A stretch of 64,000 nt of DNA from a phage, in assembly GCA_018296565.1 (NCBI GenBank), contig GCA_018296565.1_3935.1, one strand, 5' to 3'. The notes beneath the pieces are model-generated. The model was not told where the DNA came from. It saw only the letters and a program-made list of their open reading frames with translations, and made no database searches. The position numbers were made by a program, and so were the translations under genes. Numbering within the stretch: the stretch's first letter is position 1; the number at the start of each line of letters is the position of its first letter. Shown piece by piece: positions 18,779-20,744 of this stretch.

Positions 18779-19243
18779 TTACTTTGGGTATACACTGTCA
18801 AGATAAATGTCAGCTTCCATTCTACGTCTGTTTTTCAGGCCGTTTGAAGTGACCTTCTGACCTTTGACTGTAACCTTGTTCCACCACTGCATAGCTTCTG
18901 CACAACCTACCTTATTACCAGCGTTGTGGCGCTTGATAAATGTAGAGTCCTGCATAGCTGTGATACCAATGTTGTATGTTTCACTTACAAGTGCATCAAA
19001 CTCGTTCTGAGAAGTTGGAACCTTGATGGCTTTGTTCACTGCTGCAACGAATTTCTCAACATCTGCAAGAAGATACTGTTCAGCTTGTTCAGCAGTAATC
19101 TTCATACCCATCTTAACAGGCTTCCCACCAATACGAATTGTCCCATACCCAATTGTGGGGATTCCAGCAGAATCTTCGTAAGCCTCAAGCTTAAGACCTT
19201 CAAAGAACTTAATAGCTTCTAAACCTTTTCTTGAGAGTTGCAT
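18779..19243 (-). CDS. phage lysozyme (GH24, T4 lysozyme-like endolysin)
   Basis: N-terminal FEGLKLEAYEDSAGIPTIGYGT matches the catalytic Glu/Asp/Thr region of T4-type lysozymes. Confidence 0.7.
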   Translation of the reverse strand: MQLSRKGLEAIKFFEGLKLEAYEDSAGIPTIGYGTIRIGGKPVKMGMKITAEQAEQYLLADVEKFVAAVNKAIKVPTSQNEFDALVSETYNIGITAMQDSTFIKRHNAGNKVGCAEAMQWWNKVTVKGQKVTSNGLKNRRRMEADIYLDSVYPK

Positions 19244-20376
19244 TATGCCTCCCCTGCTGGGTTAACTGTAACTGTTGCTGCATTAGATGTTACAGAGCCA
19301 CCTGCACCAGTAACTACACAAGTGTAGCTTCCTGCATCAGCAGTGGTTGCACCTTCTTTGGTGTAAGTTGCAGCAGTTGCATCGAGGATGTCTTCCTCAC
19401 CTTTCTTCCACTGGTAACCTGTTGCACCTGTTGCCACAACATTCAGTGTTAAAGTCTCACCTTCAGTGATTTCTTGATTGGTTGGCTGTTGAGTGATTAC
19501 CGGAAGTGCGTTAACAATAATCGTTGCAGGGCTAGAAGTGACAGAACCACCTGCACCTGTTACAACGCAAGCGTATGAACCTGCATCTGCTGGCAGAGCA
19601 CCAGACTTGCTATAGGTAGCATTTGTCGCTGAAGGAATGTCAGAGCCATCTTTCTTCCATTGGTAACCGGTTGCACCAGTTGCAGTAACTGCTAAGTTGA
19701 TGTTTCCACCTTCATTAATAGTCTGGTTAGAAGGTTGCTTGGTAATCACAGGTAGTGCGTTCACAGTCACTGTTGCTGCATCTGAGGTAACACTTGTTCC
19801 ACCCTCTCCAGATACAACACAAGTGTATGAACCAGCGTCAGAAGGTGCTACTGACTGTTTTGTGTAAGTTGCAGAATTGGCACTAGGGATATCCTCACCA
19901 TCCTTCTTCCACTGATATCCAGTGGCGTTAGTTGCTAGAATGCTTAGAGTAAGTGTGCCACCCTCATTGACTGTTTGACCTGTTGGTTGCTGAGTAATTG
20001 CTGGTGGCTTAATAGCATCCTTCAACTTAGCATTCAACATTGAGAACGGCTTAACTCTTGCCAACCATTCACAATACACTGTGTCAATGTCTTTACCATT
20101 GATGATTGCATACTGTAAATCCATGAAGAAATCAGCAGTCCTCATCTGTGCACCAACACTGTAAAGGAGTTCATCACTAAAAGGAACTTTGTAGTCTGGT
20201 TTGTAGTCAAACTTCGCAACCTCTGCAATATCAGCTTCAGGCCAATATGAGCTATAGGTTAGCGGTAAAATAGCTTCTTGATATGTTCTAAAATCATATC
20301 TCTTACCAGCCTTTACATTTGCAACGAAACCTTTTACAAATTCTTTGAAGTCTGGGTAAGTCTTTGCTTTAATCAT
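19243..20376 (-). CDS. protein with N-terminal domain of unknown function and three tandem Ig-like domains
   Basis: Three repeats of about 82 aa each with GYQWKKDG...DAGSYTCVV Ig-type motifs. Confidence 0.6.
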   Translation of the reverse strand: MIKAKTYPDFKEFVKGFVANVKAGKRYDFRTYQEAILPLTYSSYWPEADIAEVAKFDYKPDYKVPFSDELLYSVGAQMRTADFFMDLQYAIINGKDIDTVYCEWLARVKPFSMLNAKLKDAIKPPAITQQPTGQTVNEGGTLTLSILATNATGYQWKKDGEDIPSANSATYTKQSVAPSDAGSYTCVVSGEGGTSVTSDAATVTVNALPVITKQPSNQTINEGGNINLAVTATGATGYQWKKDGSDIPSATNATYSKSGALPADAGSYACVVTGAGGSVTSSPATIIVNALPVITQQPTNQEITEGETLTLNVVATGATGYQWKKGEEDILDATAATYTKEGATTADAGSYTCVVTGAGGSVTSNAATVTVNPAGEA

Positions 20377-20744
20377 TTCTTTTTAGCCTCTAAACGTGCG
20401 TTTAATCTAAAATAGCCTTTATGTTGTGGAGACACATCACTAACAACAATACCTTCAACTTTATAGCCCTTACCAATTACATACTGGATATCCATAAGAA
20501 ACGTACCAAGCCCAACAATGTGGAACATTGGGTATAGTAACTTATCTGAATCTGGGAGTTTAATTTCTGGTTTATAGGTAGGTTGTTCGGCAGTTGGTGT
20601 AATATCTTCTTCAGGCCATTTGCTAAGTCTCCATGTTAAAGGTGATGCAATAACATCGTTAAGATTATATCTCTCACCTTTCTCCACGGAATTAATATAG
20701 GATTGTAGGAAGCAATAAAAGTCTTTTGCACTCTTAGCCTTCAT
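20373..20744 (-). CDS. hypothetical protein, paralog of N-terminal domain of the Ig-repeat protein
   Basis: Shared pattern AK...DF...G.RY...PLT...WPE.DI...YKP...SD.LLY...FMD.QY with the 19243-20376 product. Confidence 0.55.
   Translation of the reverse strand: MKAKSAKDFYCFLQSYINSVEKGERYNLNDVIASPLTWRLSKWPEEDITPTAEQPTYKPEIKLPDSDKLLYPMFHIVGLGTFLMDIQYVIGKGYKVEGIVVSDVSPQHKGYFRLNARLEAKKK

Follow-up and report, generated by a model that had tools for sequence, protein, structure and literature searches.

The stretch of phage DNA considered here (the window, 64,000 nucleotides in full) carries two adjacent genes with related products right beside a lysozyme gene, and the question raised by this locus is what these two proteins do and whether their position reflects a part in lysis. 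The source phage is a Felix O1-like myophage of the genus Felixounavirus. The three genes form a compact cluster on the minus strand, namely a gene for a basic 123-aa protein (pI 8.9; 20373..20744), a gene for a 377-aa protein (19243..20376) and, as the final gene, a T4-lysozyme-like endolysin (18779..19243; Pfam Phage_lysozyme, E 9e-41); the stop of the first gene overlaps the start of the second by 4 nt (ATGA), and the stop of the second shares 1 nt with the endolysin start. Upstream of the cluster lies a terminator-like hairpin (20768..20783, minus strand), which the annotation of phage AYO145A gives as a rho-independent terminator and which also appears in Table 2 for Felix O1; after it comes the AAGGA ribosome-binding site of the 123-aa gene. 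Another terminator-like hairpin (18752..18769, minus strand), with a matching feature annotated in AYO145A, ends the cluster past the endolysin. The structural module begins with TerL at 30031, on the opposite strand and past a tRNA array, so that the 377-aa gene lies ~9.7 kb from TerL and ~15 kb from the gene of the major capsid protein (MCP; 35744..36850, plus strand; phrog_29, major head protein); a position more than 10 kb away from the structural module has already been published for this kind of gene.

An earlier note, made from the sequence alone, had described the two proteins as tandem paralogs, the larger one bearing three Ig-like repeats of a usually surface-exposed kind, adjacent to the lysozyme gene and away from the structural module, and had left their role as unclear. 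This description of domains and layout proved right on every point, but the last statement is outdated for the Ig protein, which cryo-EM of two close relatives places at hexamer centres as a surface-exposed capsid decoration. The note did not name the capsid as attachment site.

The 377-aa protein is already known from publications on Felix O1-type phages as their Hoc-like head decoration protein, hereafter Hex-Dec. Its phmmer alignment to Hex-Dec of phage Bas63 (bas63_0124; PDB 9NCF chain S, 9ncf_S) covers residues 1-372 with an E-value of 7.5e-292, and it also matches gp20 of phage Sf14 (9C2D chain S, 9c2d_S; E 1.8e-168) and the family phrog_3995 (E 1e-206). Bas63 Hex-Dec and Sf14 gp20 are direct orthologs, and in all three phages the capsid-binding domain (CapBD) lies at the N terminus and precedes C-terminal Ig repeats, the gene stands between the paralog and the endolysin, and the MCP partner is near-identical. 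In Bas63 and Sf14, cryo-EM of the T=9 capsid located a Hex-Dec/gp20 monomer at hexamer centres, and solely in the 60 hexamers that are pentamer-proximal (PMC12609058, PMC11821841). Regarding association with the particle, which the earlier note had raised, the ortholog gp36 was detected with 44% coverage by virion proteomics of Felix O1 (PMC3185647), and Sf14 gp20 was seen in virions by mass spectrometry. Nothing substantive stands against the identification of Hex-Dec. Taken together, and with a probability of roughly 0.9, Hex-Dec would be a hexamer plug bearing an Ig fibre, and the 123-aa gene an old duplicate of its CapBD whose product is, as a best guess, non-structural or bound to the capsid just transiently.

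The residues that anchor Hex-Dec to the capsid are kept in the window. CapBD (aa 1-122; 20011..20376, minus strand) differs from that of Bas63 at 8 of 125 aligned residues, and its translation contains Arg79 and Arg107, which are invariant across Hex-Dec orthologs, are kept in Bas63 and Sf14 alike, and were reported as the salt-bridge partners of MCP Asp221 (PMC11821841). The window MCP also has Asp221, its printed alignment with 9ncf_A holding 4 differences in 368 aa (E 2e-248). Given the near-identity of both partners to their orthologs, Hex-Dec of the window would be expected on pentamer-proximal hexamers and in virions. In a T=9 capsid, the N-terminal CapBD (~120 residues) would act as a monomeric plug at the centre of each of the 60 pentamer-proximal hexamers, salt bridges from Arg79 and Arg107 to Asp221 would keep it in place, and the three Ig-like domains would extend outwards as a flexible and acidic (pI 4.3) fibre. 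By analogy with T4 Hoc, this fibre probably lets the particle stick weakly to cells, mucus or other surfaces, or serves for the control of aggregation; for Bas63 g124, PhageMaP only reports a greater need on E. coli S17-1. In the AF2 model of full-length Hex-Dec, CapBD was poorly predicted (pLDDT 31-59), so the model was discarded as a basis for interface analysis. An exhaustive profile search retrieved only 12 clusters among 1.84 billion representatives, which makes CapBD a tiny family devoid of informative distant homologs, and word-index homolog searches returned close orthologs only.

The likeness to T4 Hoc concerns the arrangement on the head, i.e. a monomer at the hexamer centre from which a string of Ig-like domains projects. 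Hoc-like families match the 377-aa protein, namely phrog_2973 (E 9e-40) and phrog_4069 (E 7e-38), with matches confined to residues 120-291 and 128-205, that is to the Ig part, outside of which no sequence similarity to T4 Hoc was found. In contrast with Hex-Dec, the capsid binder of Hoc is C-terminal, the domain order being thus reversed; besides, CapBD has a larger size, a distinct topology and pseudo-C2 symmetry (PMC12609058), and, as a further difference, just 60 of the 80 hexamers carry Hex-Dec. The way Hex-Dec works is that of Hoc, but it falls outside the T4 Hoc family. As for pb10 of phage T5 (PDB 5LXK, 8ZVI), its Ig domain is related by sequence (E 3e-12 to 4e-12), but it has one such domain, and the matches to 8zvi_a and 5lxk_A extend over residues 131-207 only, no similarity being detected between the capsid-binding domain of pb10 and CapBD of the window; judging from these alignments, Hex-Dec does not belong to the T5 pb10 family.

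While the Ig protein is thus ordinary and already explained, a modest open question concerns the paralog. Its relation to Hex-Dec is borne out by BLASTP against Hex-Dec 1-119 (35% identity and 58% positives over 121 aa, E 3e-18), by PHROG cross-hits and by phmmer against 9ncf_S (E 7e-14), the only matches by sequence in the PDB being 9ncf_S and 9c2d_S. A Foldseek search with the AF2 model of the paralog (pLDDT 72.7, i.e. moderate confidence) against the PDB gave the CapBD of these same two chains with a TM-score of 0.72 and a probability of 1.00, and no further match at E<0.3, so the paralog is predicted to retain the CapBD fold. It is a typical member of phrog_4463 (E 8e-78), a family devoid of functional annotation, and is the ortholog of Felix O1 ORF37 and of Bas63 gp125 (93% identical to bas63_0125); a Pfam scan assigned it to no family. 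At the positions equivalent to Arg79 and Arg107, the window paralog has Gly78 and Gln107, and every aligned paralog carries Gly and Gln/His there. The paralog is a real gene under purifying selection, with a dN/dS of 0.12, evolving ~2.5 times faster than CapBD (dN/dS 0.05). The 123-aa gene is best explained as an old tandem duplicate of CapBD alone, both anchoring arginines having since been lost.

One world-wide clade has lost the paralog by a single deletion, which is shared by 5 of the 5 paralog-less genomes examined (Tf, L021, EcF-vB, REP7 and fKMPT1). The Hex-Dec gene is intact in this clade, with 1-2 Ig domains, and the paralog is consequently not strictly needed by Hex-Dec. Elsewhere, the order paralog, Hex-Dec, lysozyme is conserved in a metagenomic relative with a paralog of just ~49% identity, and a more distant lineage has a single Ig-less CapBD gene with the lysozyme gene directly downstream; for the distant CapBD protein L042, the gene upstream was checked and is not another paralog. 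Despite this conserved adjacency, a functional link of Hex-Dec or its paralog to lysis was rejected, since the endolysin transcript of Felix O1 peaks at 25 min against 60 min for ORF36 and ORF37, and Hex-Dec is a head protein. The vicinity of the endolysin would rather reflect an ancient conserved cluster of late genes.

In Felix O1, ORF36 (Hex-Dec) and ORF37 (the paralog) are both transcribed maximally late. The product of the latter, gp37, is not in the published virion list, which was cut at a minimum coverage of 25% and might have passed over a protein of 14 kDa (PMC3185647), and the virion model of Bas63 holds no protein corresponding to the encoded bas63_0125 (PMC12609058). Bas63 and Sf14 both encode the paralog, in Sf14 at ~10506-10868 of NC_042075, and the cryo-EM work on each noted no density for the remaining hexamers (PMC12609058, PMC11821841); neither of these structure papers mentions the small protein, and the word 'paralog' has 0 occurrences in them. 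The literature searched gave no description of PHROG 4463, ORF37 or gp125 as a CapBD paralog, nothing on it was found in the wV8 proteome paper, in the Sf14 supplement or in the accessible part of the PhageMaP preprint, and the main text on the VpaE1 proteome implies no extra protein from the Hex-Dec/paralog region. Counting against an absence from these particles, the tail tips of both Bas63 and Sf14 show a helix-rich trimeric density to which no protein is assigned, and a monomer located on a true 3-fold axis might be smeared out by icosahedral averaging. As a best guess, the paralog would be an accessory protein of the late phase that is either non-structural or associated with the capsid just transiently, and not a second stable decoration.

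Among the more specific roles, recruitment to a function away from the capsid, e.g. host-directed or anti-defence, with only the ancestral fold retained, is a tentative possibility. The faster evolution of the paralog, the absence of both capsid-anchoring arginines in every ortholog, its non-detection in virions and its dispensability in a natural clade, as is often the case of accessory genes, are all consistent with such a role, but its late timing together with morphogenesis genes is unusual for host-takeover genes, and the searches revealed no likeness to a defence-related or enzymatic family (none in Pfam, CapBD only in the PDB fold search). An unrelated accessory gene of this sort would have no wider consequence.

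More doubtful is a part in head assembly, where the paralog would either bind procapsid hexamers transiently or, as a partner or chaperone, mask the CapBD of Hex-Dec until capsid expansion and then be released. This role would suit two genes that overlap by 4 nt and whose Felix O1 orthologs are co-transcribed late, as it would a conserved (predicted) fold deprived of its anchoring residues, purifying selection and the lack of the paralog from mature-virion data; against it, the paralog-less clade keeps an intact Hex-Dec, for which the paralog is accordingly no strict requirement. On a related line, it is unlikely that the paralog is a second capsid-hexamer ligand which, either in procapsids or at the 20 true 3-fold hexamers, helps set where or whether Hex-Dec fibres are installed. 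If true, it would be a dedicated regulator of head-decoration patterning, missed by cryo-EM averaging and shotgun proteomics. The interest of the paralog, as a conserved and late-expressed copy of CapBD not seen on the capsid, is that it could help explain why Hex-Dec chooses 60 of 80 hexamers.

Quite improbable, finally, is a second and fibre-less hexamer cap, placed on the 20 true 3-fold hexamers or competing with Hex-Dec so as to tune fibre density. The predicted CapBD fold and the late transcription shared with Hex-Dec in Felix O1 fit such a cap; the basic character of the paralog makes electrostatics compatible with capsid binding at an acidic, Asp-lined hexamer centre, and the residues that replace R79 and R107 might match the different orientation that Asp221 takes in true 3-fold hexamers (PMC11821841). 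Yet the other hexamers have no reported density in either paralog-encoding phage, gp37 is not among the listed virion proteins of Felix O1, a viable clade exists without the paralog, and Hex-Dec/gp20 was built into the 3.1 Å density of the 60 occupied sites, which speaks against mixed occupancy of these sites. For the 377-aa protein itself, the annotation as 'tail protein' or 'major tail protein' found in many GenBank records, and echoed by the 'tail' label of phrog_3995, was rejected and deserves practically no credence, as the ortholog sits on the capsid in two phages by cryo-EM (PDB 9NCF, 9C2D) and the Bas63 authors explicitly call the tail annotation wrong. The identification of Hex-Dec is accordingly of value for annotation, given that most Felixounavirus records and PHROG 3995 designate as tail a protein that decorates the head and whose capsid-binding domain has been solved.

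Besides CapBD, the remainder of Hex-Dec consists of three tandem Ig-like domains of 83-87 aa, each recognised by Pfam as a separate stretch with Ig_3 (E 8.8e-32), Ig_2 (6.5e-27) and I-set (3.3e-24), and modelled by AF2 as three beta-sandwiches with a pLDDT of 94-96 (residues 123-372). Ig-like domain 1 comprises aa 124-207 (19756..20007; Ig_3/I-set; pLDDT ~94), domain 2, an internal and dispensable unit, aa 208-290 (19507..19755; best Ig_2 stretch 209-288), and domain 3, the terminal unit, aa 291-377 (19246..19506; best I-set stretch 292-366), all on the minus strand. They share 65-70% identity at the protein and 60-65% at the DNA level. The three DNA repeats of the earlier note were recovered, but with a spacing of 249/252 bp instead of 246; Tandem Repeats Finder reported no 250-bp array, the copies being too diverged for it, and the repeats were resolved by seed-based repeat finding, which gave three DNA registers, together with protein-level analysis.

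The variation in repeat number that the same note had anticipated is real, and a range of 1 to 4 Ig domains among relatives is already published (PMC12609058, PMC11821841). Across 28 Hex-Dec genes (the window and 27 related loci), 4 have one Ig domain, 12 have two, 10 have three and 2 have four; Sf14 has three as in the window, and Bas63 four, the window lacking its third, internal unit. In most of these 1-4 Ig forms, the flanking units are orthologous: Ig1 of the window is 90-100% identical to the first Ig of the examined 2- and 4-Ig forms, with the exception of phage Tf, whose first Ig is nearer to Ig2 than to Ig1, and Ig3 is 84-97% identical to the final Ig of the examined 2- and 4-Ig relatives. 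Ig2 is missing in the 2-Ig relatives L008 and Felix O1 and present in 4-Ig relatives, Tf retaining an Ig2-like first unit. Such shifts would proceed by gain or loss of internal units through recombination between the 60-65%-identical DNA repeats. As proteins of the Hoc type serve as display platforms and have been proposed to mediate adherence to mucus, it is useful to know how many Ig domains each therapeutic Felix O1-like phage carries.

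The 377-aa product of the minus-strand ORF 19243-20376 is, judging from its sequence, an ortholog of Hex-Dec from phage Bas63 (g124/bas63_0124; PDB 9NCF chain S, 460 aa, E 7.5e-292) and of gp20 from phage Sf14 (PDB 9C2D chain S, 372 aa, E 1.8e-168), i.e. a Hoc-like head decoration protein. The central object of the earlier note, an Ig protein encoded apart from the structural genes, is in other words already characterised through solved orthologs. In cryo-EM, the N-terminal ~118-122 residues constitute the capsid-binding domain (CapBD), which sits as a monomer at the centre of the pentamer-adjacent hexamers, 60 of the 80 in the T=9 shell, and never on the 20 hexamers at the true 3-fold axes, the Ig domains being flexible and not resolved (PMC12609058, PMC11821841). 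In Sf14, Arg79 and Arg107 are salt-bridged to Asp221 of three major capsid protein (MCP) subunits (PMC11821841). Since both arginines are retained in the Hex-Dec of the window and its MCP (35744-36850, plus strand) is near-identical to that of Bas63, with D221 present, the published placement can be carried over with little risk. The Felix O1 ortholog gp36 (31.6 kDa, two Ig domains), annotated as 'tail protein', was recovered from CsCl-purified virions with 44% coverage (PMC3185647), and its gene adjoins that of the lysin gp35, as checked from gene position. The 'tail protein' annotation has been declared wrong by the Bas63 authors (PMC12609058); PHROG 3995, the best PHROG match of Hex-Dec, is still labelled tail. 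As for structure prediction, AF2 performed poorly on the Hex-Dec CapBD from an alignment of Hex-Dec orthologs only (pLDDT 31-59), and AlphaFold misprediction of this domain was also noted by the Sf14 authors (PMC11821841).

Like T4 Hoc, Hex-Dec is a monomer at the hexamer centre with projecting Ig domains, but its domains run in the opposite order, its matches to Hoc-like PHROGs are confined to the Ig part and the CapBD topology is distinct, as published (PMC12609058), which together rule out membership of the Hoc family. T5 pb10 shares the layout of an N-terminal binder followed by C-terminal Ig, and its Ig domains are related to those of Hex-Dec (E about 3e-12), whereas the capsid binders display no detectable similarity. 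By analogy, the Ig fibre would be adhesive or anti-aggregation; the one functional datum found is from a genome-wide knockout screen, in which Bas63 g124 mattered more on E. coli S17-1.

The three Ig-like repeats previously proposed are borne out by Pfam, where Ig_3, Ig_2 and I-set each match three stretches (E about 1e-32 to 1e-24), and by AF2, where the three beta-sandwiches reach pLDDT 94-96; the DNA period of ~246 bp did not hold, the spacing being 249/252 bp. The units (aa 124-207, 208-290 and 291-377) are 65-70% identical in protein and 60-65% in DNA, and Tandem Repeats Finder detected no array there, the copies being too diverged. With a pI of 4.3, the Ig part is acidic. The anticipated variation in copy number does occur: across 28 Hex-Dec genes, one from the window and 27 from related loci, one Ig domain is present in four, two in 12, three in ten and four in two. 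This variation is already published, both cryo-EM papers giving 1-4 Ig domains among relatives (PMC12609058, PMC11821841). It is modular, with internal units gained or lost: in most two- and four-Ig forms examined, the first unit is orthologous at 90-100% identity and the last at 84-97%, phage Tf being an exception with a first unit closer to Ig2 of the window, and the Hex-Dec of the window corresponds to that of Bas63 without the third unit. One-Ig forms look like chimeras of first and last units, and the overall pattern fits unequal recombination between repeats. Besides, the repeats (19246-20007, minus strand) match GhpA (PDB 9FLP, E 1.2e-73, 10 stretches), a grappling-hook protein from Aureispira, a predatory bacterium, far more strongly than they match animal Ig proteins, which suggests a bacterial/phage I-set-like repeat family common to Hex-Dec and GhpA.

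Hex-Dec belongs to a co-oriented minus-strand trio, formed by a 123-aa Ig-less ORF (20373-20744), Hex-Dec itself and a T4-type lysozyme of 154 aa (18779-19243; Pfam Phage_lysozyme, E 9e-41), flanked by terminator-like hairpins at 20783-20768 and 18769-18752 (minus strand), both of which also carry terminator annotations in phage AYO145A. The first gene has an AAGGA ribosome-binding site ahead of it, and its stop shares 4 nt (ATGA) with the Hex-Dec ATG; the Hex-Dec stop shares 1 nt with the lysozyme start. Over 200 Felix O1-like phages, from Escherichia, Salmonella, Shigella and Citrobacter, share this 2.7-kb region at 93-96% identity. As the earlier note had it, the cluster lies away from the structural module: it is ~9.7 kb from TerL (from 30031), on the opposite strand to TerL, portal (from 31665), protease (from 33975), MCP, sheath (from 38776), tape measure (from 41304) and a tail fibre gene (from 50536), with 24 plus-strand tRNA genes (24036-29598) in between. 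Upstream of the cluster stands a 196-aa gene (20792-21382, minus strand; phrog_4034, without assigned function), syntenic in all relatives examined; in the distant contig L040, its counterpart faintly matches Phage_Inh_N of Pfam. Divergent from the cluster and directly upstream of the tRNA array are plus-strand genes for a DUF5681 protein (22002-22373) and a Ro60/TROVE-like 'RNA-binding protein' of 471 aa (22455-23870; phrog_850), the homolog of the latter in a distant relative carrying DUF2828/DUF7788. An Rfam search returned tRNAs alone at gathering score, with no Y-RNA-like partner.

The Ig-less ORF (phrog_4463) is indeed a paralog of Hex-Dec, with 35% identity over 121 residues (E 3e-18), and the earlier observation as a whole is real and its interpretation sound. 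What remains novel is this undescribed Ig-less CapBD paralog, a modest and experimentally cheap question: the word 'paralog' has no occurrence in the text of either structure paper (PMC12609058, PMC11821841), and searches of the Hex-Dec and Felixounavirus decoration-protein literature yielded no further account of it. It is a real gene: about 233 records out of 253 from Ounavirinae-type phages contain it, and its dN/dS is 0.12 (0.05 for the Hex-Dec CapBD, 0.12 for Ig1). It is also old, as the order paralog, Hex-Dec, lysozyme is kept in Mooglevirus and Suspvirus relatives and in an 87-kb metagenomic contig, where the paralog is only about 49% identical. In the still more distant L040, a single CapBD gene (P0105, 5001-5462), which has a lysine-rich tail but lacks Ig, stands directly upstream of the lysozyme gene, like Hex-Dec, and the Ro60-like and DUF5681 neighbourhood is kept even there as in the window; the linkage of CapBD to lysozyme is therefore older than the duplication. 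The CapBD family is tiny: out of 1.84 billion representative proteins, its members make up 12 clusters at 50% identity. Among its distant members (P0101-P0105, P0101 lying at 869-1489 of contig L042), some bear Big_2-type Ig domains instead of I-set, and in one, with a lysine-rich disordered tail, Ig is absent altogether.

Regarding the role of the paralog, a late-expressed accessory protein which kept the ancestral fold and does not decorate the capsid stably and stoichiometrically fits best. In Felix O1, ORF37, the ortholog, reaches its transcription maximum late, as do ORF36 and the morphogenesis genes; the peak of the lysin gene ORF35 comes earlier. The AF2 model (pLDDT 72.7), built from an alignment mixing paralogs and CapBDs, matched in the PDB the CapBD of 9ncf_S and 9c2d_S only (TM 0.72). 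In every ortholog aligned, Arg79 is replaced by Gly and Arg107 by Gln or His, and the whole protein is basic (pI 8.9 vs. 6.3 for CapBD); with this fold and these substitutions, it may bind capsid hexamers or Hex-Dec transiently or at an assembly stage. Bas63 (bas63_0125, 93% identical) and Sf14 both encode the paralog, which is absent from both structures, and no density was seen on the remaining hexamers (PMC12609058, PMC11821841); gp37 is likewise absent from the Felix O1 virion protein list, which used a coverage threshold (PMC3185647). That threshold and the icosahedral averaging, which attenuates the signal of a monomer placed on a 3-fold axis, are weak points of this negative evidence, and the paralog may alternatively cap the true 3-fold hexamers without a fibre, having escaped both averaging and proteomics. 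Its function may also be unrelated to the capsid, the predicted fold notwithstanding. A further weak point of the negative evidence is a helix-rich trimeric density at the puncture-apparatus tip, matched to no gene product in Bas63/Sf14 (PMC12609058, PMC11821841); small late proteins from outside the structural module, e.g. the paralog, may be candidates for it.

Natural loss bears on the accessory reading: the paralog is dispensable, about 20 of the 253 records belonging to a Felixounavirus clade devoid of it. All five paralog-less genomes examined (Tf, REP7, fKMPT1, EcF-vB and one IMG/VR contig), from isolates of the USA, India, Egypt and from turkey, carry an identical remnant (2806-2997 in Shigella phage Tf, L002; also in L021, L043, L044 and L045), in which the start codon is gone and about 220 bp are deleted with the same junction, a single ancestral loss in a successful clade. 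The remnant retains the 3' end bearing the Hex-Dec ribosome-binding site, and the upstream terminator hairpin is also retained at this locus.
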